From Candidatus Moraniibacteriota bacterium (GTDB lineage: Bacteria > Patescibacteriota > Minisyncoccia > Moranbacterales > DUUL01), in the NCBI GenBank assembly GCA_034522495.1, contig JAXHLG010000002.1:401541-465540 (forward strand): 64,000 nucleotides of DNA, in the 5' to 3' direction. This document shows positions 11,011 to 34,889 of the stretch, piece by piece (position 1 is the stretch's first letter; every line of letters begins with the position of its first letter). The notes beneath the pieces were generated by a model that was not told the DNA's origin, searched no databases, and was given only the letters and a program-made list of their open reading frames with translations. The position numbers and the translations under genes were made by a program.

Positions 11011-11835
11011 GTGTTTGATTACAAAGTGAAGCCGGAAGAGTATGACGAGGAATATTTTCTCGGTGAAGATTATGGAGGCATAGAATTTTACAATTCAGGC
11101 GTCAAGAAGCCCTGTCCTTCAAGCGATAGGATTTTCAGCTTGATAAAAAGAGCTAATGAAGGGACTGCCTTGGATGCCGGTTGCGGAAAAGGGGAGATGC
11201 TTTATTTTTTGAGCAAGAAAGGCTTTGATGTCTATGGAATAGATTATTCCCAGGATGCTATTGCATTGGCAAAAAAAACGCTAAAGGAAAAGAAAGTAAA
11301 TGCTTGGGTGGGAAAGTCGGATGTTAGAAAAACTTCATTTGATGATAATTTTTTCGATGTTGTTGTTTCAACTGATTTGGTGGAGCATCTGGATGACGAT
11401 GATGCCGTAGTGGATTTTTTAAATGAAATGCATCGGGTGCTCAAACCCGGAGGTGTTTTTTATATGCATACTGCTCCCAACAAGCTTTATGTAGATTTTT
11501 TTCAGAGACTCTACAGAAGACAGGTTGATTTAGTTCTTTCTGGTTTGGCTAATTTGTTCCTTTCCCCAAAAAATAAAATTAAAATCAAGACTGAGTTCAG
11601 GGATCACAATGATAAAAAATTTCATATAAACGAGCAAACCTATTTCAGTATGAGAAATAACTTGAGCAGGTCAAAATTTAGTGATTATAAAATTGAAATG
11701 TTTGCGGATCCCTTCCGGTTTGAAATAAAAAAACTGCCCTATTATTTGATAGGCTATCTGTTCCCCTTGAATAAAATTTTCCCGCTGAGCATATTGCTAG
11801 GGAATCATATTTATTGCGTTCTCAAGAAAAGATAA
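11011..11835 (+). CDS. Class I SAM-dependent methyltransferase
   Basis: LDAGCGKGEMLYFLSKKGFDVYGIDYS (motif I), LKPGGVFYMHT. Confidence 0.8.
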   Translation: MFDYKVKPEEYDEEYFLGEDYGGIEFYNSGVKKPCPSSDRIFSLIKRANEGTALDAGCGKGEMLYFLSKKGFDVYGIDYSQDAIALAKKTLKEKKVNAWVGKSDVRKTSFDDNFFDVVVSTDLVEHLDDDDAVVDFLNEMHRVLKPGGVFYMHTAPNKLYVDFFQRLYRRQVDLVLSGLANLFLSPKNKIKIKTEFRDHNDKKFHINEQTYFSMRNNLSRSKFSDYKIEMFADPFRFEIKKLPYYLIGYLFPLNKIFPLSILLGNHIYCVLKKR

Positions 11836-11875
11836 ATTTCCGAGTTTTCTTAATCTCTACTAAGACTTTCTTGAG

Positions 11876-11912
11876 TGGAGGTTGAGCCACCATTATGGAG
11901 GCTCAACCTCCA
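11876..11912. repeat. REP-like palindrome, GGAGGTTGAGCC variant
   Basis: tggaggttgagcc-accattatgga-ggctcaacctcca, between convergent genes. Confidence 0.8.
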
Positions 11913-11967
11913 GGGAAGGAAATGCAGGGAAGGAAATATATATTTTAATCCGGATTTAAATATATAT

Positions 11968-13719
11968 TTATTTTGATTCAGACTTGGATTGGATTGCTTG
12001 GAGGGTTTTTTGGAGCTGTTGGTTTTCCGGGTTGATCTTGAGGGCTTTCTTGATTTCTTCAAGCGCTTTTTGATGATCTCCTTGGTTGAAATAGACGGCG
12101 GCTAACTGTTGGTGGGTTTGCCAAAGATTGGGATTGAACTCTAAAGCTTTTTGGAAATTTTCGATGGCTTTTTGGGTTTCTCCCATTTTGTAGAAAGTAT
12201 TGGCCAAGTTGTGGTAAGCGTCGGCGTAGCCGGGTTTTTGTTCGATGGCTTTTTTGAATTCTTTTACTGCTTTTTCATATTCTTCTCTTCTGGTATAAAC
12301 ATCCCCCAGGTTGTTGTGGATGTTACCGCCTTCTTGGGAGACTTCGGCCGTTGCCATCCAGAGGGTGTCGCGGTTTTTCCAGTCGGTGTTGCGCACGATT
12401 GTCCTGGCGCACAAGGCGATTAGCAGGATGGCCGCAAGGGTGTAGATAATTTGCCGGCCTCTTTGTCCCTTGAATTTGTTCAAAAGATAGTGTGCCAAAA
12501 TGGCGACGGCAGCTGTCAGGCCGATGAGGCCGGGGTAAACGTATCTTTCGGCTACCACCCAGGAGATTCTCAGGGGAGTTAAAGTGGGCAGAAGGGAGAT
12601 AACAAAAAAGGCTAGCCAGAAGAAAATAAACTTGTTTTTCTTGTAAGCTAAGATCAAAACACCTAAAAATGCCAGGAAAACAATCCAAATCAGGAAAAAT
12701 TCCAGTCTCCCGGGGCTTACGTTGGTGTGATAAAGGGTAAGGGATTGAGGCCAGGTGAATAGCTTTAAATAATTCACGATCGCCACCGGGACCTGCACCA
12801 AGGGATTTTCCAGTCCTTGCTGGCTTTGGTAGTGAACCTGCTGCAGGGTTTCTTTTCTTTCCCCTACTTTGCTTATCATCAAGACTCCGATGATTCCCGC
12901 CAAGCTTGCGTAAGGAATCATTTTTTTCCAATGCAGCCTCAAATTGCCGAACAAAAATTCATAGAGAGGAAAAACAAGAATCAGAGCGAAAGCTTTCTGG
13001 GAAGAAGTGACGCAAAGCAGGAAAGCGATGACAGAGAGAATGTAATATTTGCGGTTTTGTTTGCCAAGCAGGTAAAAAATAAAAGAAAAGAGAAAAAAGA
13101 AGGTGTATTGCGCGTAGGTTACCCCCGACATCCAAGTCACGGCCTCGCTTGCCAGCGGATGAACCGCAAAGAGGGAGGCTGCAATAACGGCAATTCTTTT
13201 TTTGGTTAGCAAGCTTAACAAGACAAAAATTCCCAGCACGCTTCCCAGGTGGTAGAAAATATTGAGCAAATGAAACGGCACCGGGCTGCCTTGGCTTATT
13301 TGATAAGCCAAAAAGTAAGTGATTCGAAAGAAATATCCGATCGGGGAAAACTGCAAAAAGATTTCCGGAGAGCGGATGTTTTCGTTTTGGGCGATGGATT
13401 TGATGTCATCGGAAACGTATTCGTTGCCGAGAATGTTTATGTAGCAAGCAAAAACCAAGGCGAAGAGAAGAATTAAAGTGAGCCGATTTTTGTAAAAAAA
13501 GCTTCGCCAGGAGAATGATTTTATTTCCCCGCTTGATTCTGTTGCGGGAGAAGATTTTTTTACTTCCACCACGCGCTTGTATTTTTTCTTGCTCCAGATT
13601 TTTCGGAGGTATTTTTCAATATCTTTTTCCGAGATATTCATTTCTCGCGCCAAATCCGGCAGGCTTCGCTGCCTTATTTCCCGCTTGATTTTCTTTTTTT
13701 GCCTGGAAGATAATGACAT
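11968..13719 (-). CDS. Polytopic membrane protein with C-terminal TPR repeats (possible PMT/ArnT-like glycosyltransferase)
   Basis: Basic N-terminus, about 10 hydrophobic helices, C-terminal TPRs (AYHNLANTFYKMGETQKAIENFQKALEFNPN; AAVYFNQGDHQKALEEIKKALKINPEN). The enzymatic assignment is a guess. Confidence 0.6.
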   Translation of the reverse strand: MSLSSRQKKKIKREIRQRSLPDLAREMNISEKDIEKYLRKIWSKKKYKRVVEVKKSSPATESSGEIKSFSWRSFFYKNRLTLILLFALVFACYINILGNEYVSDDIKSIAQNENIRSPEIFLQFSPIGYFFRITYFLAYQISQGSPVPFHLLNIFYHLGSVLGIFVLLSLLTKKRIAVIAASLFAVHPLASEAVTWMSGVTYAQYTFFFLFSFIFYLLGKQNRKYYILSVIAFLLCVTSSQKAFALILVFPLYEFLFGNLRLHWKKMIPYASLAGIIGVLMISKVGERKETLQQVHYQSQQGLENPLVQVPVAIVNYLKLFTWPQSLTLYHTNVSPGRLEFFLIWIVFLAFLGVLILAYKKNKFIFFWLAFFVISLLPTLTPLRISWVVAERYVYPGLIGLTAAVAILAHYLLNKFKGQRGRQIIYTLAAILLIALCARTIVRNTDWKNRDTLWMATAEVSQEGGNIHNNLGDVYTRREEYEKAVKEFKKAIEQKPGYADAYHNLANTFYKMGETQKAIENFQKALEFNPNLWQTHQQLAAVYFNQGDHQKALEEIKKALKINPENQQLQKTLQAIQSKSESK

Positions 13720-20842: not shown

Positions 20843-22174
20843 ATCACTCGTGTCCGGTTCACAAATCCCACAAACAAGCCTGTTTTCCGCCGCTTCTTTT
20901 AAAATTTTGCAATTCAGGATTACTAAACAGCTCAACCATGGGAGTTTTAGTTAGGACTGACACGTTCAAAATTTGTAATATTTCGTAGAGGTTCTTTTCA
21001 ATCTTCCATTGTTTTTTGAAAATGGCTACTACAAGATAAGCGCAAATGGCAATGCAGATTTGGGTTTTTACCGCGTTCTCTGAGCGGCCCCAGAAGGCTT
21101 TGATCTTGAGATGCTGCTTGATCCACTTGAAAAACAATTCAATTTGCCAGCGGTGCTTGTACAGGGCGGCTATTTTCTCAGCAGAAAGATTAAAATCGTT
21201 GCTCAAGTAAGTGAAATACTTTTTGCTTTCTTGATCAAAGAATTTAATCCTCCTTAATTTCTCCGGATACCTCTTAGAGCTTTTCCAATTGCTAAGCTTG
21301 ATTATCTGATCGCAGCAAATCCCTGTTCCTTTTTCCTTCCTGTTGGAATAAATTCTTTCAAATCCCAGACACTCCTTGGCTCTGATAACAAAGAAGGCTC
21401 CTTTTCGGTGAATTTTGTAAAGCCTGCCGTAATCTATGTAGCCCCGGTCCAGAATGTAATGCGCTTCCGGTTCAATTTCGATCGAATCCAGGAATTCCAG
21501 ATCGTGCCTTTTGGCGCTAGTGATTTCAAACATGGCGGGAATATTGCCGTCAAGGTCCATTTGCAGATTCAGCTTCACCCCGGCTCTTACAGTCTTGAGC
21601 TTGGCCCAGGAGAAAAGAGAAAGGCAGAGTTCGATTACCGATGAATCTATAATGTAGCAAGCCCCGTTCAGTTCCAAATTAAAATTGTCATCGCCTGCAT
21701 ACAGCTTTCTGGCTTTATCAATCAATATTCCCGCCAGGTCCCTGTAAATCCTCCAATCCCTTTTTTCGCTGGCATCGGAAAGAGTTGATCTTGAAATAAT
21801 GCTGGAAAAACCCAAGTTGCGGATTTTTCCCTGCTGGGAGCTCAAGCAGTTGACAACGTCCCGGAGACTTTCCCGATGAGAAATCTGCCCAAAAAAGAGA
21901 GCTAGGAATTGATTCCAGCAAGTAAGTTTTTTTACTGCCGAATTGCCCCGGTATCTATCCACGCATCGGTTGAATTCATAACGTGGGATGTGATCTGCAA
22001 GCTGAGAAAGAACATATTTTCCATGATACATTTGAGTAATTGATAATTGCTTAAAAAACAATATCAATTATCCCATTATTTCCGTTCAAGCCAAAAAAAA
22101 TTCTTGTCCCTTGATTTTGGCTCTGGAAAGCCAAAATCAGGAGATGAGAAAAAAATTAACCGGACACGAGTGAT
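20843..22174 (-). mobile_element. IS4-family insertion sequence, copy 1 (1332 bp)
   Basis: Perfect 17-bp terminal inverted repeats ATCACTCGTGTCCGGTT. Flanking direct repeat attaac (6 bp; 10 bp atattaacat if the ends are taken as CACTCG). Single DDE transposase ORF. Confidence 0.9.
20859..22067 (-). CDS. IS4-family DDE transposase
   Basis: 402 aa. DUF4372-like N-terminus (YHGKYVLSQLADHIPRYEFNRCVDRYRGN), D in YIIDSSVIE, D in YILDRGYIDY, and Y(2)R(3)E(6)K in YKHRWQIELFFKWIK. Confidence 0.85.
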   Translation of the reverse strand: MILFFKQLSITQMYHGKYVLSQLADHIPRYEFNRCVDRYRGNSAVKKLTCWNQFLALFFGQISHRESLRDVVNCLSSQQGKIRNLGFSSIISRSTLSDASEKRDWRIYRDLAGILIDKARKLYAGDDNFNLELNGACYIIDSSVIELCLSLFSWAKLKTVRAGVKLNLQMDLDGNIPAMFEITSAKRHDLEFLDSIEIEPEAHYILDRGYIDYGRLYKIHRKGAFFVIRAKECLGFERIYSNRKEKGTGICCDQIIKLSNWKSSKRYPEKLRRIKFFDQESKKYFTYLSNDFNLSAEKIAALYKHRWQIELFFKWIKQHLKIKAFWGRSENAVKTQICIAICAYLVVAIFKKQWKIEKNLYEILQILNVSVLTKTPMVELFSNPELQNFKRSGGKQACLWDL

Positions 22175-22268
22175 ATTAACATATAAACATTTTAACATAT
22201 TATCATATTATCATTTTATCATATGAACATTTAAGCATTCAAACATACAAGCATCTAAACATTTAATC
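22175..22268. repeat. 8-mer tract, right part
   Basis: attaacatataaacattttaacatattatcatattatcattttatcatatgaacatttaagcattcaaacatacaagcatctaaacatttaatc. Confidence 0.75.
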
Positions 22269-22372: not shown

Positions 22373-23704
22373 ATCACTCGTGTCCGGTTCACAAATCCCA
22401 CAAACAAGCCTGTTTTCCGCCGCTTCTTTTAAAATTTTGCAATTCAGGATTACTAAACAGCTCAACCATGGGAGTTTTAGTTAGGACTGACACGTTCAAA
22501 ATTTGTAATATTTCGTAGAGGTTCTTTTCAATCTTCCATTGTTTTTTGAAAATGGCTACTACAAGATAAGCGCAAATGGCAATGCAGATTTGGGTTTTTA
22601 CCGCGTTCTCTGAGCGGCCCCAGAAGGCTTTGATCTTGAGATGCTGCTTGATCCACTTGAAAAACAATTCAATTTGCCAGCGGTGCTTGTACAGGGCGGC
22701 TATTTTCTCAGCAGAAAGATTAAAATCGTTGCTCAAGTAAGTGAAATACTTTTTGCTTTCTTGATCAAAGAATTTAATCCTCCTTAATTTCTCCGGATAC
22801 CTCTTAGAGCTTTTCCAATTGCTAAGCTTGATTATCTGATCGCAGCAAATCCCTGTTCCTTTTTCCTTCCTGTTGGAATAAATTCTTTCAAATCCCAGAC
22901 ACTCCTTGGCTCTGATAACAAAGAAGGCTCCTTTTCGGTGAATTTTGTAAAGCCTGCCGTAATCTATGTAGCCCCGGTCCAGAATGTAATGCGCTTCCGG
23001 TTCAATTTCGATCGAATCCAGGAATTCCAGATCGTGCCTTTTGGCGCTAGTGATTTCAAACATGGCGGGAATATTGCCGTCAAGGTCCATTTGCAGATTC
23101 AGCTTCACCCCGGCTCTTACAGTCTTGAGCTTGGCCCAGGAGAAAAGAGAAAGGCAGAGTTCGATTACCGATGAATCTATAATGTAGCAAGCCCCGTTCA
23201 GTTCCAAATTAAAATTGTCATCGCCTGCATACAGCTTTCTGGCTTTATCAATCAATATTCCCGCCAGGTCCCTGTAAATCCTCCAATCCCTTTTTTCGCT
23301 GGCATCGGAAAGAGTTGATCTTGAAATAATGCTGGAAAAACCCAAGTTGCGGATTTTTCCCTGCTGGGAGCTCAAGCAGTTGACAACGTCCCGGAGACTT
23401 TCCCGATGAGAAATCTGCCCAAAAAAGAGAGCTAGGAATTGATTCCAGCAAGTAAGTTTTTTTACTGCCGAATTGCCCCGGTATCTATCCACGCATCGGT
23501 TGAATTCATAACGTGGGATGTGATCTGCAAGCTGAGAAAGAACATATTTTCCATGATACATTTGAGTAATTGATAATTGCTTAAAAAACAATATCAATTA
23601 TCCCATTATTTCCGTTCAAGCCAAAAAAAATTCTTGTCCCTTGATTTTGGCTCTGGAAAGCCAAAATCAGGAGATGAGAAAAAAATTAACCGGACACGAG
23701 TGAT
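22373..23704 (-). mobile_element. IS4-family insertion sequence, copy 2 (1332 bp), same orientation as copy 1
   Basis: Same 17-bp TIRs. Flanking direct repeat agatat (or atagatatat). The transposase and all listed spurious ORFs translate identically to copy 1. Confidence 0.9.
22389..23597 (-). CDS. IS4-family DDE transposase (identical to 20859..22067)
   Basis: 402-aa translation identical to copy 1. Confidence 0.85.
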   Translation of the reverse strand: MILFFKQLSITQMYHGKYVLSQLADHIPRYEFNRCVDRYRGNSAVKKLTCWNQFLALFFGQISHRESLRDVVNCLSSQQGKIRNLGFSSIISRSTLSDASEKRDWRIYRDLAGILIDKARKLYAGDDNFNLELNGACYIIDSSVIELCLSLFSWAKLKTVRAGVKLNLQMDLDGNIPAMFEITSAKRHDLEFLDSIEIEPEAHYILDRGYIDYGRLYKIHRKGAFFVIRAKECLGFERIYSNRKEKGTGICCDQIIKLSNWKSSKRYPEKLRRIKFFDQESKKYFTYLSNDFNLSAEKIAALYKHRWQIELFFKWIKQHLKIKAFWGRSENAVKTQICIAICAYLVVAIFKKQWKIEKNLYEILQILNVSVLTKTPMVELFSNPELQNFKRSGGKQACLWDL

Positions 23705-23749
23705 AGATATATTATAAAGAATAAGTATTGAAATTTTTAAAAAACCAAA

Positions 23750-24196
23750 ATGCAAAATAAAAAGACGGTTATATTGATAGTTTTGATTGTTCTACTCCTT
23801 TCAGGAGTGGGAGTTTTCGGGTATTTGATTTATGCGGAAAAAAACAAACAAGCAAAGGAGATTCAGGGAGAAGTCTCAAAGCAGAAAAATCTTCAAGACA
23901 ACCAAAATCAATCGAAGGTTAAAGAATTAAAAAGTTTCGAGGGCATGGTTAAGGCCAGGGAGGAAAACTTTTTGAGGGTGGAATTTAGTTATGAAGGAAA
24001 AACGTGGCAGTCTAAAGTTGATAAAAACGAGGAAACTTTTATCGGGAAAGCTTCAAGAGATGAAAACTCTTTTCCTCAAGAGTTGGCCATGGAAGAAATT
24101 AAAGAAGGAGACTTGGTAATTGTTAGTTCTCAAGAAAACATATTGGCCAAAGAATCGTTTCCGGCTAGCATGATAATGGTGGCGGAAAAAAAATAG
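23750..24196 (+). CDS. Small N-terminally membrane-anchored protein, paralog family member 1
   Basis: MQNKKTVILIVLIVLLLSGVGVFGYLIYAEK. The N-terminus and 5' UTR are homologous to 32331..32723. Confidence 0.65.
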   Translation: MQNKKTVILIVLIVLLLSGVGVFGYLIYAEKNKQAKEIQGEVSKQKNLQDNQNQSKVKELKSFEGMVKAREENFLRVEFSYEGKTWQSKVDKNEETFIGKASRDENSFPQELAMEEIKEGDLVIVSSQENILAKESFPASMIMVAEKK

Positions 24197-24202
24197 AAAT
24201 TT

Positions 24203-26879
24203 CTTTTCGGCGCGCGCGAAAAAAGCAGTTGAAAAAAGCGGGTCAACAGCCCCATAAAACGCCAAGGCCGTTCATATATATCTTAGGGAAAAAGCTATGA
24301 AATATTTAAATAAATCAAGTCCGATATCCTGTATATTATTATTGGCCTTGTTTTCCCTCCTCTTTTCCTTCTCAACGCTAGGCGGCAATAACGCTTCAGC
24401 TGTTGTTATGATACCCTCGGGAGAAGACGGCGCTGAGGATAAAACAATTGCTGATATTAGCATCAGCCAATTAAAAGTGGTTGAACAAAAAGACCATCAA
24501 GTCAAGCTGTCTTTTGCTGTTTACAATCTTTCCAACAGATTTCAGCCGGATGTTGAATATGGCATAAGATTATTCAGGAAAGAGGCGGTTGAGTCGGAGC
24601 ACGGCACGGAAGAAGAGGGAACAAGCTCCAAAGAGTTTCACCCGGGGGATGTCTTGTATGAGAAAATAGATCCCGAGAGCATGGATTTATCTCCAGGAGA
24701 GAAAATTGACAAGAAAGAGGCCTACGAGATGCCTTCCCATCTGGAAGGAGAATTCCTAATCCAGTTATTTGCCAAGACTTCCTCCGGCCTGTTTTTGGGT
24801 ATGGCCGAAACTGAAGTTGTAAAAATGGAAAAAGGAGAAGACGGCATAGAGCTGGACCACAAAGAATGCCGCCTTCTGAAGAATTCCAATACAGAAGAAG
24901 AATACGCTCTGTCCGATCCGATATACATTAATTCTCAAGAGCAATTAGCCATCAAATGCTTATTGAGCAATGATTCCCCGGAAACAAGAACGATAATGCC
25001 CGCCTTTGATATTTATGAAGAAAGCATTTTCGGGGAAAAAATAGAAACGGAATCAAACCCCGGCAAGATTTCAATTGAACCGAAAGAATCCAGAGAGATA
25101 AGCCTGAATGTACCGAAAACTAAATCCCCCGGTTCGTATTATGCTGCTTTGCATTTAAAGCAGGGGGAAGCGGCGGTTTCTAACAGGATATATTTCAACT
25201 ATGCCGTAGAAGGGTTATCCGCCTCCATTTATGACATCAAGGCGAATCAAGAAGAAAATCAAAACATCTCGGTTTCTTTTTACTGGAGCGGAATCAGGGA
25301 GAATTTTGCTCCCGGGACTCAAGAAAGGCCAAGCCCAAAAAATCAAGACCTTCAACTAAGCCTAAGAATCGTTGACCAGCATGGAAAAGACTGCGCTTCT
25401 CCCGTAACAAAATCTTTAAGCGGCGAAAAGAATTACTCGGAATTTTCTACTTCCGTGATCAAAAGCTGCGCTTCTCCTTACGCGGAAGCCAAGATAAAAA
25501 ACCAAAAAGGCGAGGTTCTCGACGAAATTAAAGTTAGAGCCGCCTCCATGGAAAAGAAAGAAAAGAAAGAAGCTGCTCCCGGGGAAAACGCTTCCGAGGA
25601 CAACGCCCTGATTTTAATTGCCTCAGCTCTGATTGTTTTGTTCTTGATTTTTCTTCTGTGGTGGCTTTTGGTTAAGAAAAAGCTGCTCAAAAAGAGCTTT
25701 CTGGCCTTGTTTGTCTTTTTGTCAGCTTTTGTTTTTCTGGCATGGGATATTGGAGAGGTGAACGCGGGAGGTTGGAAATGGCTTGGTTATCGTATGCTAG
25801 GATATACTAGTCAACCTAACCACTGGGAACCTAAGGATTATTACACATATCATTATTATGAAGATGAAAGCTACCCCGCTCAGGCGGATGATGAGATTAC
25901 CGGTCAAATTTATGGGAAACTTTATGGAAAGCACTGTAGCGGCTGGATGAAGGTTAACGGTGTTACGGTGTGGCGCCTACGGTTTCCAACAGACTTTGGC
26001 AGTGGTTCTGGTCCTGGTACTTATATTAGCGGTCAAAGGAGCTGGCCGCATGGATGTGAAGGTACTTACCGGGTTGAATATGAGTGGATGTTTAATTATG
26101 ATAGTAGTGGTGATGGTGTTTGCAACGAAACAGCTGAAGGAGATAACACTCAGAAGTATAAAATTATTTGCGATGAAGCCGAAGATTATCGCTGCCGCTG
26201 GAATAGCGTGTGGAAATACGACGCCTGCGGCTGCCCCGACGAATATATTGAAAGCTGCCCCACCGGATACTGCGATTACGGAGGCGACGTGGATTATTAT
26301 TGTTCCGGAGACAAGCTGATGGGCGTGTATGATTACGTAAGACAAGGCTGCCGGGCGGGAGCTTGCTATACTGGCAATGTATGGCACAACTCCTGCGGAT
26401 CATTTGTAAAAGAGGATTGCTCTGATCTGCCCAACTATTGCGAAGAGTGGGATGATGACTGGACTTGTAAAGACGAAACCACGAAAATGAAAAGCAGGGA
26501 ATGCTATAATTCCGGCTGTTCTTCCGCCTCTTGCTACGGAGATTCATATACTGAAACTAAAGAAGAGGAATGCTTGAAAGACGGAGTTCAGGGCAGATGC
26601 ATCAACGGCGCTTGTTTCTATCAAGGAGCCTGCGGCAGCGCAAATGACTCGGATCCGACGTGCGAGGCGCCGAAAGACAATTTATGTTTAATTAATTTTT
26701 ATGACGACCCAGTGGTCCGGTACGACAGCGCTGACGGCGATAAGTCAAAAGACAAATACTACTGGACCTGCGAAGGAGCCGATCAAGACAGCGATCAGGA
26801 TGATGCTAATTGCAGCGTGGAAAGAGATTGCCAAGTAACGTCAGAGGGCTGGCGCGAGGCGTCGTTTTGATTGTTCTGC
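24203..26879 (+). repeat. Tandem repeat unit 1 (2677 bp)
   Basis: Starts at cttttcggcgcgcgcgaaaaaagc. The same junction recurs at 26880 and 29560. Confidence 0.95.
24297..26870 (+). CDS. Surface protein, copy 1 (857 aa): signal peptide, about 430-aa N-terminal domain, TM hairpin, Cys-rich C-terminal domain
   Basis: SP LLLALFSLLFSFSTLGGNNASA. TM1 ALILIASALIVLFLIFLLWWLLV, loop KKKLLKKS, TM2 FLALFVFLSAFVFLAW. 28 Cys after TM2 (my count). Terminal CGSAN...LC...YWTC...CSV module. Confidence 0.8.
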   Translation: MKYLNKSSPISCILLLALFSLLFSFSTLGGNNASAVVMIPSGEDGAEDKTIADISISQLKVVEQKDHQVKLSFAVYNLSNRFQPDVEYGIRLFRKEAVESEHGTEEEGTSSKEFHPGDVLYEKIDPESMDLSPGEKIDKKEAYEMPSHLEGEFLIQLFAKTSSGLFLGMAETEVVKMEKGEDGIELDHKECRLLKNSNTEEEYALSDPIYINSQEQLAIKCLLSNDSPETRTIMPAFDIYEESIFGEKIETESNPGKISIEPKESREISLNVPKTKSPGSYYAALHLKQGEAAVSNRIYFNYAVEGLSASIYDIKANQEENQNISVSFYWSGIRENFAPGTQERPSPKNQDLQLSLRIVDQHGKDCASPVTKSLSGEKNYSEFSTSVIKSCASPYAEAKIKNQKGEVLDEIKVRAASMEKKEKKEAAPGENASEDNALILIASALIVLFLIFLLWWLLVKKKLLKKSFLALFVFLSAFVFLAWDIGEVNAGGWKWLGYRMLGYTSQPNHWEPKDYYTYHYYEDESYPAQADDEITGQIYGKLYGKHCSGWMKVNGVTVWRLRFPTDFGSGSGPGTYISGQRSWPHGCEGTYRVEYEWMFNYDSSGDGVCNETAEGDNTQKYKIICDEAEDYRCRWNSVWKYDACGCPDEYIESCPTGYCDYGGDVDYYCSGDKLMGVYDYVRQGCRAGACYTGNVWHNSCGSFVKEDCSDLPNYCEEWDDDWTCKDETTKMKSRECYNSGCSSASCYGDSYTETKEEECLKDGVQGRCINGACFYQGACGSANDSDPTCEAPKDNLCLINFYDDPVVRYDSADGDKSKDKYYWTCEGADQDSDQDDANCSVERDCQVTSEGWREASF

Positions 26880-29559
26880 CTTTTCGGCGCGCGCGAAAAA
26901 AGCAGTTGAAAAAAGCGGGTCAACAGCCCCATAAAACGCCAAGGCCGTTCATATATATCTTAGGGAAAAAGCTATGAAATATTTAAATAAATCAAGTCCG
27001 ATATCCTGTATATTATTATTGGCCTTGTTTTCCCTCCTCTTTTCCTTCTCAACGCTAGGCGGCAATAACGCTTCAGCTGTTGTTATGATACCCTCGGGAG
27101 AAGACGGCGCTGAGGATAAAACAATTGCTGATATTAGCATCAGCCAATTAAAAGTGGTTGAACAAAAAGACCATCAAGTCAAGCTGTCTTTTGCTGTTTA
27201 CAATCTTTCCAACAGATTTCAGCCGGATGTTGAATATGGCATAAGATTATTCAGGAAAGAGGCGGTTGAGTCGGAGCACGGCACGGAAGAAGAGGGAACA
27301 AGCTCCAAAGAGTTTCACCCGGGGGATGTCTTGTATGAGAAAATAGATCCCGAGAGCATGGATTTATCTCCAGGAGAGAAAATTGACAAGAAAGAGGCCT
27401 ACGAGATGCCTTCCCATCTGGAAGGAGAATTCCTAATCCAGTTATTTGCCAAGACTTCCTCCGGCCTGTTTTTGGGTATGGCCGAAACTGAAGTTGTAAA
27501 AATGGAAAAAGGAGAAGACGGCATAGAGCTGGACCACAAAGAATGCCGCCTTCTGAAGAATTCCAATACAGAAGAAGAATACGCTCTGTCCGATCCGATA
27601 TACATTAATTCTCAAGAGCAATTAGCCATCAAATGCTTATTGAGCAATGATTCCCCGGAAACAAGAACGATAATGCCCGCCTTTGATATTTATGAAGAAA
27701 GCATTTTCGGGGAAAAAATAGAAACGGAATCAAACCCCGGCAAGATTTCAATTGAACCGAAAGAATCCAGAGAGATAAGCCTGAATGTACCGAAAACTAA
27801 ATCCCCCGGTTCGTATTATGCTGCTTTGCATTTAAAGCAGGGGGAAGCGGCGGTTTCTAACAGGATATATTTCAACTATGCCGTAGAAGGGTTATCCGCC
27901 TCCATTTATGACATCAAGGCGAATCAAGAAGAAAATCAAAACATCTCGGTTTCTTTTTACTGGAGCGGAATCAGGGAGAATTTTGCTCCCGGGACTCAAG
28001 AAAGGCCAAGCCCAAAAAATCAAGACCTTCAACTAAGCCTAAGAATCGTTGACCAGCATGGAAAAGACTGCGCTTCTCCCGTAACAAAATCTTTAAGCGG
28101 CGAAAAGAATTACTCGGAATTTTCTACTTCCGTGATCAAAAGCTGCGCTTCTCCTTACGCGGAAGCCAAGATAAAAAACCAAAAAGGCGAGGTTCTCGAC
28201 GAAATTAAAGTTAGAGCCGCCTCCATGGAAAAGAAAGAAAAGAAAGAAGCTGCTCCCGGGGAAAACGCTTCCGAGGACAACGCCCTGATTTTAATTGCCT
28301 CAGCTCTGATTGTTTTGTTCTTGATTTTTCTTCTGTGGTGGCTTTTGGTTAAGAAAAAGCTGCTCAAAAAGAGCTTTCTGGCCTTATTTGTCTTTTTGTC
28401 AGCTTTTGTTTTTCTGGCATGGGATATTGGAGAGGTGAACGCGGGAGGTTGGAAATGGCTTGGTTATCAAATGCTAGGATATAGTTATCAGGATGGACAT
28501 ACTTATGTATATCATTATTATAATGATGAAAACTACTCCTGGTCGGTGGATAATTGGCAGGCGGATGATGAGATCACCGGTCGAATTTTTGGGAGACTTT
28601 ATGGAAAGCACTGCAATGGCTGGATGAAGGTTAACGGTGTTACGGTGTGGCGCCTACGGTTTCCAACAGACTTTGGTAGTAGTTCTGGTCCTGGTACTTC
28701 TGTTAGCGGTCAAAGGAGCTGGCCGCATGGATGCGCCGAAGGTACCTATCGGGTTAAATATGAGTGGATGTTTAATTATGATAGTAGTGGTGATGGTGTT
28801 TGCAACGAAACAGCTGAAGGAGATCTCACTCAGAAGTATAAAATTATTTGCGATGAAGCCGAAGATTATCGCTGCCGCCGGAATAGCGTGTGGAAATACG
28901 ACGCCTGCGACTGTCCCGACGAATATATTGAAAGCTGCCCCACCGGATACTGCGATTACGGAGGCGACGTGGATTATTATTGTTCCGGAGACAAGCTGAT
29001 GGGCGTGTATGATTACGTAAGACAAGGCTGCCGGGCGGGAGCTTGCTATACTGGCAATGTATGGCACAACTCCTGCGGATCATTTGTAAAAGAGGATTGC
29101 TCTGATCTGCCCAACTATTGCGAAGAGTGGGATGATGACTGGACTTGTAAAGACGAAACCACGAAAATGAAAAGCAGGGAATGCTATAATTCCGGCTGTT
29201 CTTCCGCCTCTTGCTACGGAGATTCATATACTGAAACTAAAGAAGAGGAATGCTTGAAAGACGGAGTTCAGGGCAGATGCATCAACGGCGCTTGTTTCTA
29301 TCAAGGAGCCTGCGGCAGCGCAAATGAATCGGAGTCGACATGCGAGGCGCCGAAAGACAATTTATGTTTAATTAATTTTTATGACGACCCAGTGGTCCGG
29401 TACGACAGCGCTGACGGCGATAAGTCAAAAGACAAATACTACTGGACCTGCGAAGGAGCCGATCAAGACAGCGATCAGGATGATGCTAATTGCAGCGTGG
29501 AAAGAGATTGCCAAGTAACGTCAGAGGGCTGGCGCGAGGCGTCGTTTTGATTGTTCTGC
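26880..29559 (+). repeat. Tandem repeat unit 2 (2680 bp)
   Basis: ORF start offset 26974-24297 = 2677. Identical upstream 94 nt. Confidence 0.95.
26974..29550 (+). CDS. Surface protein, copy 2 (858 aa)
   Basis: First 498 aa identical to copy 1. Different variable cassette. Private substitutions CRRNS, ACDCP, ANESESTCE. Confidence 0.8.
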   Translation: MKYLNKSSPISCILLLALFSLLFSFSTLGGNNASAVVMIPSGEDGAEDKTIADISISQLKVVEQKDHQVKLSFAVYNLSNRFQPDVEYGIRLFRKEAVESEHGTEEEGTSSKEFHPGDVLYEKIDPESMDLSPGEKIDKKEAYEMPSHLEGEFLIQLFAKTSSGLFLGMAETEVVKMEKGEDGIELDHKECRLLKNSNTEEEYALSDPIYINSQEQLAIKCLLSNDSPETRTIMPAFDIYEESIFGEKIETESNPGKISIEPKESREISLNVPKTKSPGSYYAALHLKQGEAAVSNRIYFNYAVEGLSASIYDIKANQEENQNISVSFYWSGIRENFAPGTQERPSPKNQDLQLSLRIVDQHGKDCASPVTKSLSGEKNYSEFSTSVIKSCASPYAEAKIKNQKGEVLDEIKVRAASMEKKEKKEAAPGENASEDNALILIASALIVLFLIFLLWWLLVKKKLLKKSFLALFVFLSAFVFLAWDIGEVNAGGWKWLGYQMLGYSYQDGHTYVYHYYNDENYSWSVDNWQADDEITGRIFGRLYGKHCNGWMKVNGVTVWRLRFPTDFGSSSGPGTSVSGQRSWPHGCAEGTYRVKYEWMFNYDSSGDGVCNETAEGDLTQKYKIICDEAEDYRCRRNSVWKYDACDCPDEYIESCPTGYCDYGGDVDYYCSGDKLMGVYDYVRQGCRAGACYTGNVWHNSCGSFVKEDCSDLPNYCEEWDDDWTCKDETTKMKSRECYNSGCSSASCYGDSYTETKEEECLKDGVQGRCINGACFYQGACGSANESESTCEAPKDNLCLINFYDDPVVRYDSADGDKSKDKYYWTCEGADQDSDQDDANCSVERDCQVTSEGWREASF

Positions 29560-32235
29560 CTTTTCGGCGCGCGCGAAAAAAGCAGTTGAAAAAAGCGGGT
29601 CAACAGCCCCATAAAACGCCAAGGCCGTTCATATATATCTTAGGGAAAAAGCTATGAAATATTTAAATAAATCAAGTCCGATATCCTGTATATTATTATT
29701 GGCCTTGTTTTCCCTCCTCTTTTCCTTCTCAACGCTAGGCGGCAATAACGCTTCAGCTGTTGTTATGATACCCTCGGGAGAAGACGGCGCTGAGGATAAA
29801 ACAATTGCTGATATTAGCATCAGCCAATTAAAAGTGGTTGAACAAAAAGACCATCAAGTCAAGCTGTCTTTTGCTGTTTACAATCTTTCCAACAGATTTC
29901 AGCCGGATGTTGAATATGGCATAAGATTATTCAGGAAAGAGGCGGTTGAGTCGGAGCACGGCACGGAAGAAGAGGGAACAAGCTCCAAAGAGTTTCACCC
30001 GGGGGATGTCTTGTATGAGAAAATAGATCCCGAGAGCATGGATTTATCTCCAGGAGAGAAAATTGACAAGAAAGAGGCCTACGAGATGCCTTCCCATCTG
30101 GAAGGAGAATTCCTAATCCAGTTATTTGCCAAGACTTCCTCCGGCCTGTTTTTGGGTATGGCCGAAACTGAAGTTGTAAAAATGGAAAAAGGAGAAGACG
30201 GCATAGAGCTGGACCACAAAGAATGCCGCCTTCTGAAGAATTCCAATACAGAAGAAGAATACGCTCTGTCCGATCCGATATACATTAATTCTCAAGAGCA
30301 ATTAGCCATCAAATGCTTATTGAGCAATGATTCCCCGGAAACAAGAACGATAATGCCCGCCTTTGATATTTATGAAGAAAGCATTTTCGGGGAAAAAATA
30401 GAAACGGAATCAAACCCCGGCAAGATTTCAATTGAACCGAAAGAATCCAGAGAGATAAGCCTGAATGTACCGAAAACTAAATCCCCCGGTTCGTATTATG
30501 CTGCTTTGCATTTAAAGCAGGGGGAAGCGGCGGTTTCTAACAGGATATATTTCAACTATGCCGTAGAAGGGTTATCCGCCTCCATTTATGACATCAAGGC
30601 GAATCAAGAAGAAAATCAAAACATCTCGGTTTCTTTTTACTGGAGCGGAATCAGGGAGAATTTTGCTCCCGGGACTCAAGAAAGGCCAAGCCCAAAAAAT
30701 CAAGACCTTCAACTAAGCCTAAGAATCGTTGACCAGCATGGAAAAGACTGCGCTTCTCCCGTAACAAAATCTTTAAGCGGCGAAAAGAATTACTCGGAAT
30801 TTTCTACTTCCGTGATCAAAAGCTGCGCTTCTCCTTACGCGGAAGCCAAGATAAAAAACCAAAAAGGCGAGGTTCTCGACGAAATTAAAGTTAGAGCCGC
30901 CTCCATGGAAAAGAAAGAAAAGAAAGAAGCTGCTCCCGGGGAAAACGCTTCCGAGGACAACGCCCTGATTTTAATTGCCTCAGCTCTGATTGTTTTGTTC
31001 TTGATTTTTCTTCTGTGGTGGCTTTTGGTTAAGAAAAAGCTGCTCAAAAAGAGCTTTCTGGCCTTATTTGTCTTTTTGTCAGCTTTTGTTTTTCTGGCAT
31101 GGGATATTGGAGAGGTGAACGCGGGAGGTTGGAAATGGCTTGGTTATCAAATGCTAGGATATAGTTATCAGGATGGACATACTTATGTATATCATTATTA
31201 TAATGATGAAAACTACTCCTGGTCGGTGGATAATTGGCAGGCGGATGATGAGATCACCGGTCGAATTTTTGGGAGACTTTATGGAAAGCACTGCAATGGC
31301 TGGATGAAGGTTAACGGTGTTACGGTGTGGCGCCTACGGTTTCCAACAGACTTTGGTAGTAGTTCTGGTCCTGGTACTTCTGTTAGCGGTCAAAGGAGCT
31401 GGCCGCATGGATGCGCCGAAGGTACCTATCGGGTTAAATATGAGTGGATGTTTAATTATGATAGTAGTGGTGATGGTGTTTGCAACGAAACAGCTGAAGG
31501 AGATCTCACTCAGAAGTATAAAATTATTTGCGATGAAGCCGAAGATTATCGCTGCCGCTGGAATAGCGTGTGGAAATACGACGCCTGCGGCTGCCCCGAC
31601 GAATATATTGAAAGCTGCCCCACCGGATACTGCGATTACGGAGGCGACGTGGATTATTATTGTTCCGGAGACAAGCTGATGGGCGTGTATGATTACGTAA
31701 GACAAGGCTGCCGGGCGGGAGCTTGCTATACTGGCAATGTATGGCACAACTCCTGCGGATCATTTGTAAAAGAGGATTGCTCTGATCTGCCCAACTATTG
31801 CGAAGAGTGGGATGATGACTGGACTTGTAAAGACGAAACCACGAAAATGAAAAGCAGGGAATGCTATAATTCCGGCTGTTCTTCCGCCTCTTGCTACGGA
31901 GATTCATATACTGAAACTAAAGAAGAGGAATGCTTGAAAGACGGAGTTCAGGGCAGATGCATCAACGGCGCTTGTTTCTATCAAGGAGCCTGCGGCAGCG
32001 CAAATGACTCGGATCCGACGTGCGAGGCGCCGAAAGACAATTTATGTTTAATTAATTTTTATGACGACCCAGTGGTCCGGTACGACAGCGCTGACGGCGA
32101 TAAGTCAAAAGACAAATACTACTGGACCTGCGAAGGAGCCGATCAAGACAGCGATCAGGATGATGCTAATTGCAGCGTGGAAAGAGATTGCCAAGTAACG
32201 TCAGAGGGCTGGCGCGAGGCGTCGTTTTGATTGTT
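29560..32235 (+). repeat. Tandem repeat unit 3 (ends just after the stop codon)
   Basis: ORF start offset 29654-26974 = 2680. Homology ends at tgattgtt|aataaagg. Confidence 0.95.
29654..32230 (+). CDS. Surface protein, copy 3 (858 aa), chimeric between copy 2 (5' part) and copy 1 (3' part)
   Basis: The variable cassette equals copy 2. Downstream sites (CRWNS, ACGCP, ANDSDPTCE) equal copy 1. Confidence 0.8.
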   Translation: MKYLNKSSPISCILLLALFSLLFSFSTLGGNNASAVVMIPSGEDGAEDKTIADISISQLKVVEQKDHQVKLSFAVYNLSNRFQPDVEYGIRLFRKEAVESEHGTEEEGTSSKEFHPGDVLYEKIDPESMDLSPGEKIDKKEAYEMPSHLEGEFLIQLFAKTSSGLFLGMAETEVVKMEKGEDGIELDHKECRLLKNSNTEEEYALSDPIYINSQEQLAIKCLLSNDSPETRTIMPAFDIYEESIFGEKIETESNPGKISIEPKESREISLNVPKTKSPGSYYAALHLKQGEAAVSNRIYFNYAVEGLSASIYDIKANQEENQNISVSFYWSGIRENFAPGTQERPSPKNQDLQLSLRIVDQHGKDCASPVTKSLSGEKNYSEFSTSVIKSCASPYAEAKIKNQKGEVLDEIKVRAASMEKKEKKEAAPGENASEDNALILIASALIVLFLIFLLWWLLVKKKLLKKSFLALFVFLSAFVFLAWDIGEVNAGGWKWLGYQMLGYSYQDGHTYVYHYYNDENYSWSVDNWQADDEITGRIFGRLYGKHCNGWMKVNGVTVWRLRFPTDFGSSSGPGTSVSGQRSWPHGCAEGTYRVKYEWMFNYDSSGDGVCNETAEGDLTQKYKIICDEAEDYRCRWNSVWKYDACGCPDEYIESCPTGYCDYGGDVDYYCSGDKLMGVYDYVRQGCRAGACYTGNVWHNSCGSFVKEDCSDLPNYCEEWDDDWTCKDETTKMKSRECYNSGCSSASCYGDSYTETKEEECLKDGVQGRCINGACFYQGACGSANDSDPTCEAPKDNLCLINFYDDPVVRYDSADGDKSKDKYYWTCEGADQDSDQDDANCSVERDCQVTSEGWREASF

Positions 32236-32270
32236 AATAAAGGAAAAAGATTGATAAGGTAAAAGTTTTA

Positions 32271-32298
32271 TTGACAGGTTTTTCTCGAGATGTATTAT
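32271..32298 (+). promoter_or_regulatory. Sigma70-like promoter of the 130-aa anchor-protein gene
   Basis: TTGACA (32271-32276), 16-nt spacer, TATTAT (32293-32298). Homologous to the split promoter at 22350 / 23705. Confidence 0.45.
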
Positions 32299-32330
32299 AG
32301 GAGATAAGTACTGAAATTAAAAAAACCAAA

Positions 32331-32723
32331 ATGCAAAATAAAAAAATGGTTATATTAATAGTTTTGATTGTTTTAGTCCTCTTGTGTGCAGGAGTTTTTG
32401 GTTATTTGATTTATGCGGAAAAAGCTGAGCAAAAAAAGTCGGGACGAAACAATCAGGATTTGTTAGATCAAGAAAAGGAGGATGAGGGAAAAGAAGAAAA
32501 AAGCTGGGGTGATATGTCGGATGAAGAAAAGGATAAAATTTTGAACGAGAGAGTTCCCTTGGAAGAGTCATCAGGTGGCACTAATGATAATAGTGAAACA
32601 GGTGGCGGGAACACCAAGATTCATTCAGAAGAAGAGGTGCAGGGGTTGCTTCTTAATGAAAGAGAGTCTGCGCCGGAAGGAGGACCCACCAAAGAGGACG
32701 CACTCAAGGTTTTAAATGAATAA
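32331..32723 (+). CDS. Small N-terminally membrane-anchored protein, paralog family member 2
   Basis: MQNKKMVILIVLIVLVLLCAGVFGYLIYAEK followed by an acidic, low-complexity ectodomain. Confidence 0.65.
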   Translation: MQNKKMVILIVLIVLVLLCAGVFGYLIYAEKAEQKKSGRNNQDLLDQEKEDEGKEEKSWGDMSDEEKDKILNERVPLEESSGGTNDNSETGGGNTKIHSEEEVQGLLLNERESAPEGGPTKEDALKVLNE

Positions 32724-32762
32724 TTGCTGTTATCTTAAGATTTTATAATTAAAATAATAATA

Positions 32763-34889
32763 ATGAAAAAAATAGTAAATTTTGCGAATTGGTCGCTGGG
32801 AGTAGCTTTGCTTGGCATGTTCGGAGGTTTGATCCTTCAAAAAGTTGAGGCATGGAGTGAGCCGCCTGATAGTCCACCCAATTCAAATGTTGGAGCGCCT
32901 CTTAATACCGGAGAGCAAGGACAAATGAAACAAGCCAAGTTGATTTTGAACATGCCGGCTGATGATGGCAGTGTCCAAACAAGCGGCTTGCTTGTTCCTT
33001 ACGGGAAAGTAGGATTAGGAACATTGTTTCCGGAGTCCAAGTTGCACATAGAAGAAAGCCTTACAACTGATACCTCTGGATACGGGGATGTCACTATGGA
33101 CGCTACCATTAGAACCGGAGCTGTTAATTATGATGGCGGTTATGGTGACTGGCCGGCCGGATTTTCTGTAAAGGTCAATGATGTCGACACTAATCTTCCC
33201 GGCGGCAGTGCAGGAATAGAGGTTTATAGCGGTATTGACGGTGTTTCCAGAGCTACTATGTTAGTTAATGCAGACTGGCAGGGAAAGACAGGAAAGCCAA
33301 CCTGGGGCGCGCTCTTGGGAGTGGTTCAAGATAGAATCAACACTCGCGGATTTGCATCTTGGATTGAAGATGGTTTGGATAACAAAGTAGATGGAAGCCA
33401 TGCTTATCTAAGCAACAGGGATAGTGACGGAAAGCTATTTTCAGGAAAGTTCGAAGGAGACGTTTATGTAAGAGATGATTTAGGTGTCGGAACAAGAGAT
33501 CCCAATGAAAAGTTGGATGTAAGAGGCAACATTGTTGCTAGCGGAACCATTTGCGATACCAATGGATGTATTGGAGATGGAGGAGGATCTTCTTTGTGGA
33601 ATCAAAACGGGAGTGATATTTATTATAATGGGGGTAACGTTGGCATTGGCAGAAACAATCCGCAGGATGAACTCGATGTTAATGGAGATCTATTGTTAAG
33701 CAAAGAAGATATTTATGCGGATACTTTTAGTTTCGGCAATGCAGCTAAAGTCTATACGGGAAGAAATGACGGATATTTGCTTCTTGCGGGGGGTAATGCC
33801 CAAGGGGACACAACAAATGGATCCGTCTTGGCGTTAACCGGGAAAAATATAAGCGATAGCTTTAGCGGTGTTCAGCCAAGGGATGACGGGGTAATAGCAG
33901 CTGGGATAAAAGGAAACTCTAACGGTTTTTACGTTTATGATTACAATACTTTTCAATGGCGTTTTAGCGTAAACGCCGAAAGAACATATGTTCATGATAA
34001 CCTTGGTGTCGGAACTGAAAATCCGCTGGGTAAGCTCCACGTAGAGGAGGAGAAGGTAACTAACGTAGCTGGAACGGATTATACTATGGATGCCACTATT
34101 CGGACCGGAGCGGTTAATTATACGGGCTATGGAGATTATCCCGCCGGCTTGTCGGTCAAAGTCAATAGTATTAGCAATGATGTGCCTGGAGGGACTGCTG
34201 GAGTAGAAGTTTACAGCGGTAAAGATAATGTTTCAAGGGCTACATTGCTGGTAAATGGGGATTGGGACAACAACGGAAGAGATACCTGGGGAGCTATTTT
34301 GGGAGTAGTGAAAGATGGAAATAATGTTAGAGGCTTGAATACTTGGATAGAGAGTGATTTAGGTGGCAGCAGCAAGTCCGGTGACGCTAAATTAAGTTAT
34401 AAGGATCCAAGCGGAAACCTTTATTCGGCATACTTTAGTGATTATGTATATGTAAACGACGATTTAAGGGTGAATGGGACGGTGCACCATAAAGGATTAA
34501 ATAATTACTCGGATATGAGGTTGAAGCAATCTGTAAATTCAATAGAGGGGTCTTCGTTGGAAAAACTGACCAAGCTTAGAGGAGTTTCTTTTGAATGGAA
34601 AGATAATCCGGGAGAAAAAGAAATTGGATTGATCGCTCAAGAAGTAGAAAAAATATACCCGGAATTAGTTGAGGAGGACAGAGAAGGAATGAAGGGAGTA
34701 CAATATTCTGCATTGGTAGCTCCAATTATAGAGGCTGTTAAAGAGCTAAAAGAAAGCTTTAGCGAAGTTAAAGACAAAATAGCAATTATCTTTGAAAGAC
34801 AAGATCGCCAAGCAGACTTATTAGAGCAACAAAATGAGCGGATTAAAGAGCTGGAAAGCAAAATAGAGGAATTGAAAAAAGCAGAATAA
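32763..34889 (+). CDS. Secreted tail-fibre-like protein with a C-terminal Peptidase_S74 intramolecular chaperone domain
   Basis: Signal/anchor WSLGVALLGMFGGLILQKVEA. Internal duplication of about 165 aa. C-terminus from 34509: SDMRLKQSVNSIEG..LRGVSFEWKD..EIGLIAQEVEKIYPELV..VQYSALVAPIIEAVKEL plus a coiled coil. Confidence 0.8.
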   Translation: MKKIVNFANWSLGVALLGMFGGLILQKVEAWSEPPDSPPNSNVGAPLNTGEQGQMKQAKLILNMPADDGSVQTSGLLVPYGKVGLGTLFPESKLHIEESLTTDTSGYGDVTMDATIRTGAVNYDGGYGDWPAGFSVKVNDVDTNLPGGSAGIEVYSGIDGVSRATMLVNADWQGKTGKPTWGALLGVVQDRINTRGFASWIEDGLDNKVDGSHAYLSNRDSDGKLFSGKFEGDVYVRDDLGVGTRDPNEKLDVRGNIVASGTICDTNGCIGDGGGSSLWNQNGSDIYYNGGNVGIGRNNPQDELDVNGDLLLSKEDIYADTFSFGNAAKVYTGRNDGYLLLAGGNAQGDTTNGSVLALTGKNISDSFSGVQPRDDGVIAAGIKGNSNGFYVYDYNTFQWRFSVNAERTYVHDNLGVGTENPLGKLHVEEEKVTNVAGTDYTMDATIRTGAVNYTGYGDYPAGLSVKVNSISNDVPGGTAGVEVYSGKDNVSRATLLVNGDWDNNGRDTWGAILGVVKDGNNVRGLNTWIESDLGGSSKSGDAKLSYKDPSGNLYSAYFSDYVYVNDDLRVNGTVHHKGLNNYSDMRLKQSVNSIEGSSLEKLTKLRGVSFEWKDNPGEKEIGLIAQEVEKIYPELVEEDREGMKGVQYSALVAPIIEAVKELKESFSEVKDKIAIIFERQDRQADLLEQQNERIKELESKIEELKKAE

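Follow-up and report, generated by a model that had tools for sequence, protein, structure and literature searches.

A tandemly triplicated envelope-protein gene of Candidatus Moranbacteria as a probable mosaic of gene conversion and concerted evolution

A stretch of 64,000 nt from the chromosome of a Candidatus Moraniibacteriota bacterium (contig JAXHLG010000002.1, positions 401,541 to 465,540; hereafter "the window", whose numbering is used throughout) carries three nearly identical copies of one large gene in tandem. Overall, our analyses suggest that these copies probably represent a mosaic of gene conversion and concerted evolution in a gene that has been triplicated in tandem and belongs to an uncharacterised envelope-protein family of the candidate phyla radiation (CPR). 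In the history that we propose, recent amplification or continual homogenisation would have given rise to the tandem triplication in the Candidatus Moranbacteria chromosome, and a few homologous-recombination events (gene conversion or import of DNA) would have produced the differences between the copies. One tract of approx. 440 nt in the middle module of the protein would distinguish copy 1, which would keep an older, diverged allele (allele A), from copies 2 and 3, which have allele B; two micro-tracts would have entered copy 2 alone; and the remainder of the sequence, including the non-coding spacers and the synonymous sites, would owe its identity to recent duplication or to conversion among the copies. 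The array, its open reading frames (ORFs) and the segments in which the copies differ are as follows.

24203-32235, plus strand: tandem array of three head-to-tail units (24203-26879, 26880-29559 and 29560-32235)
24297-26870, plus strand: ORF of copy 1, 857 aa (MDZ7611493.1, U5L10_01910), with allele A of the middle module
26974-29550, plus strand: ORF of copy 2, 858 aa (U5L10_01915), with allele B and 7 private substitutions
29654-32230, plus strand: ORF of copy 3, 858 aa (U5L10_01920), with allele B and zero private changes, i.e., the "median" sequence
25709-26146, plus strand: diverged patch of copy 1 (codon 471, silent, and codons 499-617), with 83.8% nucleotide identity to copies 2 and 3
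28386-28826, plus strand: patch of copy 2, allele B, identical to the patch of copy 3
31066-31506, plus strand: patch of copy 3, allele B, as placed by the alignment
25792-25880, plus strand: Tyr- and aromatic-rich hypervariable core of the patch in copy 1 (equivalents at 28469-28557 and 31149-31237)
28879-28914, plus strand: first cluster of substitutions private to copy 2, with 3 substitutions in 36 nt (W>R, G>D and one silent)
29328-29340, plus strand: second cluster private to copy 2, with 4 substitutions in 13 nt (DSDP>ESES)

The units are spaced 2677 and 2680 nt from start to start, and each is a repeat of 2673 or 2676 nt that consists of a 94-nt spacer, the ORF and a short terminator-like hairpin overlapping the stop codon. 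Pairwise identity among the three units ranges from 97.0 to 99.7%. The three ORFs match the annotated proteins MDZ7611493-95 (U5L10_01910, U5L10_01915 and U5L10_01920) exactly, and all of them are full-length, with identical 94-nt 5' spacers and an identical ribosome-binding-site context. Neither significant RNA structure (z = +1.3) nor a strong sigma-70-like promoter was found in the spacer between the units. As both inter-unit junctions are identical, with a 4-nt CTGC filler between the flanks (..TGATTGTT-CTGC-CTTTTCGG..), the array fits a junction that was formed once and then amplified.

The differences among the copies were read from a MAFFT nucleotide alignment of the three units. Over nt 1-1506 of the unit, spacer included, the three copies show no differences at all. 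Copy 1 differs privately at 41 substitution columns and by two offsetting 15-nt insertions or deletions (indels) and one 3-nt indel, all of which fall within 25709-26146; beyond 26146, copies 1 and 3 are identical to the end of the unit. Seven substitutions, at 28879, 28910, 28914, 29328, 29334, 29335 and 29340, are private to copy 2. No substitution is private to copy 3, which is identical to copy 2 as far as 31506 and to copy 1 from 31559 on. An earlier note on this DNA, made from the letters alone, had listed the coordinates of the differences in all three copies and had described copy 3 as carrying the cassette of copy 2 together with the downstream sites of copy 1; the alignment reproduced every listed coordinate and agrees with this description at all sites, and the peptide strings given there (including ANDSDPTCE versus ANESESTCE) are correct.

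The most diverged part of the patch is its hypervariable core, in which copy 1 shows 49% nucleotide identity to copies 2 and 3 when gaps are counted. The core had been described as completely replaced between the alleles, with a length change of one codon inside it. Neither description holds: the two core peptides are homologous but diverged, with 16 of 27 aligned residues identical in a gapped alignment, and both are 32 aa long, as the core holds two compensating indels of 5 codons (15 nt) each. The length change of one codon lies approx. 180 nt 3' of the core, where an Ala codon (GCC-type) at 28734-28736 is absent from copy 1. All divergence had also been placed past the membrane anchor of the protein. 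This is true for most sites, but not for the third-position change at 25709, which is private to copy 1, silent, and located at codon 471 inside the second helix (TM2) of the transmembrane (TM) hairpin, and the patch starts 83 nt earlier than had been listed.

We found the differences to be strongly clustered. All 41 substitutions of copy 1 fall within 456 of the 2690 alignment columns (analytic P ~6e-30; 0 of 200,000 simulations), which shows that uniform point mutation cannot have yielded the observed pattern and confirms that, as the earlier note had held, the substitutions are patchy rather than uniformly spread. All 7 sites private to copy 2 are located 3' of every site private to copy 1 (P = 1.4e-8 for the ordering), and these 7 sites are also clustered among themselves (P = 0.003).

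The age of the patch was assessed from the numbers of synonymous (dS) and nonsynonymous (dN) substitutions per site, obtained as Nei-Gojobori counts. For the whole patch, dS is 0.16 and dN/dS is 0.58; for the core, dS is 0.46 and dN/dS is approx. 0.84; and for the 3' shoulder of the patch, dS is 0.14 and dN/dS is 0.36, indicating that the shoulder is under purifying selection. In all flanks of the patch dS is 0, and dN/dS is not defined there. Recent positive selection on point mutations raises dN only. As dS is raised in the patch and is 0 in the flanks, the coalescence of the patch is older and does not reflect recent, selected point mutations; the patch therefore is older or imported DNA within homogenised sequence.

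These data agree with the earlier proposal of a recombination or gene-conversion mosaic, inasmuch as every history of the three copies needs at least one event other than point mutation. As expected under concerted evolution, the paralogs are complete and share long tracts of identity that span synonymous sites and non-coding spacers, and their differences lie in significant patches, with dS raised inside the patch. Concerted evolution or ectopic conversion among paralogs for surface proteins or adhesins is known from the babA/babB chimeras of Helicobacter pylori, the opa genes of Neisseria and the tandem emm-like genes of Streptococcus pyogenes. The array resembles these systems in having complete paralogs of the expressed type, long identity that includes silent sites, patches located in the probably exposed part of the protein, mosaics that are detectable by breakpoint statistics and a plausibly RecA-dependent mechanism. 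It differs from them in that the family is unrelated and uncharacterised, the array is strictly tandem with three copies and two alleles, and the host is a CPR bacterium with a genome of approx. 1.3 Mb. A recA gene is present in the window, which provides recombination capacity. The patch fits either import into copy 1 from a diverged homologue or a remnant in old copies that have been homogenised elsewhere, and we infer both the recombination mechanism and any adaptive value that the mosaic may have.

Several observations weigh against a conversion mosaic of this kind. No donor for allele A or for the micro-tracts of copy 2 was found in the window, and no relative that is close enough was found in the genome and metagenome collections. 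Import and retained divergence give the same pattern here, and three sequences yield no phylogenetic recombination test that is independent of rate heterogeneity. The phasing of the variants among the copies is that of the assembly. Moreover, the near-neutral dN/dS of the core, together with its compensating in-frame indels, leaves room for diversifying selection on that loop.

The position of the patch was then considered in relation to the architecture of the protein, which comprises a signal-like N-terminal segment, a domain of approx. 400 aa, a TM hairpin, a Tyr/Trp-rich middle module and a Cys-rich C-terminal module. The signal-like segment and the TM segments were assigned by hydropathy analysis, and the hairpin and the C-terminal module have the following positions in copy 1.

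25602-25745, plus strand: TM hairpin (aa 436-483), consisting of TM1 (aa 436-459), a KKKLLKK loop and TM2 (aa 467-483); also present in copies 2 and 3
26163-26867, plus strand: Cys-rich C-terminal module (aa ~623-857), with 25 Cys in 234 aa

The Trp/Tyr-rich segment at aa 484-623 contains 3 Cys, 15 Tyr and 7 Trp. Apart from the silent site in TM2, the patch starts 16 residues past TM2 and ends at codon 617. Both large halves of the protein are predicted to be extracytoplasmic from their cysteine content and from the positive-inside rule. The placement of the variable patch on the extracytoplasmic side, as proposed in the earlier note, is thus very probably right, given the signal-like segment, the TM hairpin with its KKKLLKK loop and the Cys-rich region that follows. 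When 1.84 billion representative proteins were scanned exhaustively with HMMER for matches to aa 471-857, 12 proteins were retrieved, one of which is the array protein itself; the matches to all 11 others start at query residues 152-289 (aa ~622 or later), and none covers aa 484-617. As no HMMER match covers the latter segment, the patch coincides with an orphan middle module (aa ~484-617) and stops at the boundary of the conserved Cys-rich module. In agreement with this, an AlphaFold2 (AF2) model built with a 13-sequence alignment gave predicted local distance difference test (pLDDT) values of 65-88 for aa ~625-776, which form beta-hairpin repeats, and of approx. 30-40 for the middle module; a model of the C-terminal half that AF2 built from one sequence could not be used (pLDDT 33). 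Foldseek found no match in the PDB at E <= 0.001, and searches of Pfam, NCBIfam and PDB sequences gave no match for the array protein or its relatives.

A motif VNA/GG, which resembles a signal-peptidase site, was observed just after TM2 (aa 484-490 of each copy; nt 25746-25766 in copy 1). TM2 itself resembles an internal signal peptide, with a basic n-region, a hydrophobic core and a small-x-small motif, and the C-terminal half might be cleaved from the anchored N-terminal half.

As it had been suggested that identical scaffolds with swapped cassettes represent antigenic or receptor-binding variation, we searched for components of such systems. The 64 kb were searched with tblastn and with blastn-short (word size 7), and apart from the three copies nothing matched the unit, either patch allele or the variant segments of copy 2, whether in full or in part; the silent donor cassettes for which the earlier note had proposed a search were thus not found in the window. 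A Pfam scan of 39 ORFs of the window (the larger plus-strand ORFs and those of insertion sequences [ISs]) revealed no reverse transcriptase, invertase or site-specific recombinase, and the only transposases in the window are of the DDE and IS200-like Y1 types. In the array region (23500-32800), there is no G-quadruplex (G4) motif and no simple-sequence repeat (SSR) in the array, the only two A8 runs being located upstream of unit 1; no significant inverted repeats occur in or around the units, and the three copies have the same orientation. Substitutions are not restricted to adenines (G>A 8, A>G 7, C>T 6 and others). Only two alleles, A and B, were seen, and none of the copies is a silent cassette, as all three are complete with identical upstream sequence. 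These findings do not sustain the analogy with antigenic or receptor-binding cassettes: there are two alleles, all copies are complete, and no donor, recombinase or cis element was found. As no template repeat was found in the 64 kb, no reverse transcriptase or invertase among the 39 ORFs scanned, and no inverted repeats, G4 motifs or SSRs in the array, diversity-generating retroelements (DGRs), an invertible switch and G4-driven or SSR-based phase variation were rejected as candidates.

Alternative histories of the three copies were weighed against the conversion mosaic. The earlier note had concluded that copy 3 is the recombinant; in this history, copies 1 and 2 diverged first, and one crossover or conversion event, with its breakpoint at 31506-31559, then created or overwrote copy 3 as a hybrid of 5' copy 2 and 3' copy 1. 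Consistent with this, copy 3 matches copy 2 at the 41 substitutions and the indels on the 5' side and copy 1 at the 7 sites on the 3' side, without any private change, and a 3SEQ-like maximum-descent test was significant (P = 5.7e-7). However, the uniform-rate null of that test is broken by the patchiness itself, and the conclusion does not follow from the data, as every variable site among the three sequences is private to one copy and a star tree centred on copy 3 fits exactly (branches of 41 substitutions plus indels for copy 1, 7 substitutions for copy 2 and 0 for copy 3). Under such a star tree, copy 3 may be unmodified, with copy 1 having received or kept one diverged tract and copy 2 having received two micro-tracts. 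Moreover, the order seen is [1][2][2/1], with the hybrid at the end, whereas simple unequal crossing-over between two units, [1][2], should leave it in the middle, [1][2/1][2]. Polarising the sites of copy 2 with C-terminal homologues gave a hint at one site only, G645D, where G in 8 of 10 outgroups suggests that the state of copy 2 is derived. As three sequences yield no topology, a recombinant copy 3 is one of several equally good histories, and we regard it as unlikely to be the actual one. An artefact of assembly or polishing, in which variants of different strains were spread among identical copies so that the mosaic, and perhaps the copy number, is absent from any one genome, appears quite unlikely too. 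The source is a metagenome-assembled genome (MAG), 1.5-2 kb of perfect identity between copies invites mis-phasing, and the changes private to copy 2 form tight clusters of the kind that cross-mapped reads could introduce. On the other hand, the 1,308,268-bp contig resolves two 100%-identical IS copies of 1333 bp, indicating that the assembly bridged repeats, presumably with long reads; both alleles keep an intact reading frame and make sense in evolutionary terms (dN/dS < 1, compensating indels); and the two inter-unit junctions are identical and clean.

The remaining alternatives concern the way in which the variation is generated. We consider it very improbable that the array is a genuine programmed system, in which expressed copies would swap the middle-module cassette among themselves or with silent donors located outside the window and would thereby vary a loop that binds a host or receptor. 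The patch is a discrete, Tyr- and aromatic-rich and probably exposed module just past the anchor, the same position is lineage-specific across the family, and the core combines its dN/dS of approx. 0.84 with in-frame indels, all of which would suit such a system; yet there are two alleles only, no partial copies occur in the 64 kb, all copies are full-length with the same 5' regions, no recombinase or reverse transcriptase was detected among the 39 ORFs, the array region lacks G4 motifs, SSRs and inverted repeats, and the shoulder of the patch evolves under purifying selection. Compared to the silent-cassette systems of Neisseria gonorrhoeae (pilE/pilS), Borrelia (vlsE/vls) and Anaplasma (msp2), the array is alike in its conserved scaffold, its localised variable segment and its identical flanks, which could guide conversion. 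It differs from these systems in lacking one expression site accompanied by donors that are truncated or have no promoter, in having two alleles instead of a cassette library and in having no G4 or other cis element, and all its copies look equally expressible from their sequences. Still less can be said for variation without recombination, i.e., a DGR, in-situ hypermutation or positive selection on point mutations, to which we assign a vanishingly small probability. Tyr, His, Asn, Asp and Ser abound in the core, in resemblance to the variable regions of DGRs, and the array shares with DGRs a short Tyr-rich variable segment within a domain predicted to be extracytoplasmic. However, synonymous sites are as diverged as nonsynonymous sites, the spectrum lacks adenine specificity, 15-nt and 3-nt indels are present, there is no template repeat in the 64 kb and no reverse transcriptase among the ORFs scanned, the patch is 440 nt long with shoulders of low divergence, and the variable segment is not C-terminal in a C-type lectin (CLec) or immunoglobulin (Ig) fold.

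Under the preferred reading of a gene-conversion mosaic, the cell has an otherwise identical scaffold with two versions of a loop or module that is probably exposed, i.e., standing diversity among paralogs. Provided that the array is real, approx. 8 kb (0.6%) of an ultra-small CPR genome is given over to three gene copies for a single envelope protein, with two alleles of one probably exposed module; this module then represents a candidate specificity determinant for attachment between cells or to a host in a lineage about whose surface biology very little is known. There is a slight chance that tandem, fully expressed paralogs of this protein with two ectodomains may form a small recombination-driven variation system in CPR, in which the Tyr-rich loop would be swapped or imported, thereby altering host-attachment specificity, and in which cleavage at TM2 might release the variable half. 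The mosaic itself is an ordinary sign of conversion between repeats and raises no new mechanistic question; the more useful by-product of our analyses is the description of an uncharacterised CPR family with two predicted extracytoplasmic halves joined by a TM hairpin, the second helix of which is like an internal signal peptide.

Relatives of the array protein were found in other CPR genomes. BLASTP searches showed, for the N-domain, 24-26% identity over approx. 380-420 aa (E 2e-26 to 5e-36) to P0002 (Paceibacterota, MDD3662713.1), to the 741-aa protein L5_741 encoded at locus L005 and to the 395-aa protein L2_395 encoded at locus L002. The N-domain and the TM hairpin recur together in P0002, in the neighbouring L5_741, in P0007 and in the pair of 395- and 570-aa proteins of L002. 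The hydropathy pattern of the hairpin is kept in the 5 members examined, and a small-x-small motif follows the second helix in 4 of these 5, i.e., in the array protein and in P0002, P0005 and P0007 (VNA/G, VKA/D, AQA/G and AEA/K), while none is obvious in L5_741. P0005, P0007 and P0011 (Moraniibacteriota) are also members. The Cys-rich module is the only part of the C-terminal half that has relatives elsewhere (45-47% identity); several members of the family have such a module at 45-53% identity, and the sequence past the hairpin differs from member to member. For example, adjacent paralogs of 741 and 925 aa on a Paceibacterota contig (L005, 1515-8965) share a scaffold that is 38% identical over 571 aa and then continue into unrelated C-termini. 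Overall, the relatives are like the array protein in having a signal peptide, an N-domain of approx. 400 aa, a hairpin with a basic loop and a lineage-specific region; the array genome, on the other hand, is the only one with a near-identical tandem triplication, and the middle module at aa 484-617 is without detectable relatives. The region after the anchor thus is the evolutionarily plastic part of the family, which fits the location of the patch and is explained by ordinary turnover of domains and paralogs.

Further searches added little to this set. Protein-based scans of the genome and metagenome contig collections retrieved no close relative and no further allele; a profile-based scan of the metagenomes gave no match, and one of the genomes gave only two distant loci, L006 (which is the L003 locus) and L007 (which encodes P0011 and is cut by the end of its contig). 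A word-index protein search retrieved only the array's own cluster plus P0002, further protein searches gave no match, and nothing informative on the protein family was found in the literature.

With regard to individual members, the L005 paralogs have in common the N-domain, the hairpin and approx. 100 aa beyond it, and they are located after a gene for a 730-aa protein with a Flg_new domain. At L002 (8789-11713; also at L003 and L004), from a CPR-like MAG, the large gene is split by one in-frame TAA into ORFs of 395 and 570 aa separated by 8 codons. This TAA is present in three independent assemblies, and the locus could represent a gene that is truly split, a pseudogene or a case of stop-codon read-through or recoding.

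The array lies in a neighbourhood of ordinary housekeeping genes (those for L10/L12, glycosyltransferases, prfB, ftsE/ftsX, mraW, ftsI, murE, clpB, S11/S4/rpoA/L17 and recA) and is flanked on both sides by genes for small membrane-anchored proteins.

23750-24196, plus strand: 148-aa small membrane-anchored protein at the 5' flank of the array, a paralog of the 130-aa ORF
32331-32723, plus strand: 130-aa small membrane-anchored protein at the 3' flank of the array

The 5' ends of these two flanking genes are 82% identical. At L002, the single-copy homologue is likewise flanked by paralogous small anchored proteins that are homologous to the 148-aa ORF of the window, and the same small-big-small gene order was seen around the homologue at L002/L003, where the small proteins have 165 aa (L002, 8273-8770) and 149 aa (11822-12271) and are 37-45% identical to the 148-aa protein.

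Directly upstream of the array, two 100%-identical IS copies of 1333 bp (20843-22175 and 22373-23705) are located 197 nt apart. Each encodes, on the minus strand, a 402-aa transposase with DDE_Tnp_1 and DUF4372 domains and has terminal inverted repeats CACTCGTGTCCGGTT...AACCGGACACGAGTG. These paired copies indicate recent transposition and a plastic region. A further mobile element is represented by the ORF at 1790-2506, whose 238-aa product has a Y1 transposase domain of the IS200-like type (E = 1e-8). Immediately 3' of the array, and 5' of mraW/ftsI, 32763-34889 encodes a chromosomal 708-aa protein that is internally duplicated and carries a Peptidase_S74 domain at its C-terminus (E = 5e-16); Peptidase_S74 is the intramolecular chaperone of endosialidases and tail fibres. 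The window also contains a family of non-coding intergenic repeats, which gave no match in Rfam and could be elements resembling miniature inverted-repeat transposable elements (MITEs) or regulatory repeats. Members of this family share 80-94% identity and reach 389 nt in length, many are inverted relative to one another, and one pair brackets ftsE; the pairs observed are 45840-46218/61699-62087, 15432-15643/16583-16794, 18788-19116/61800-62104, 59293-59391/63569-63667 and 14092-14186/50100-50194.

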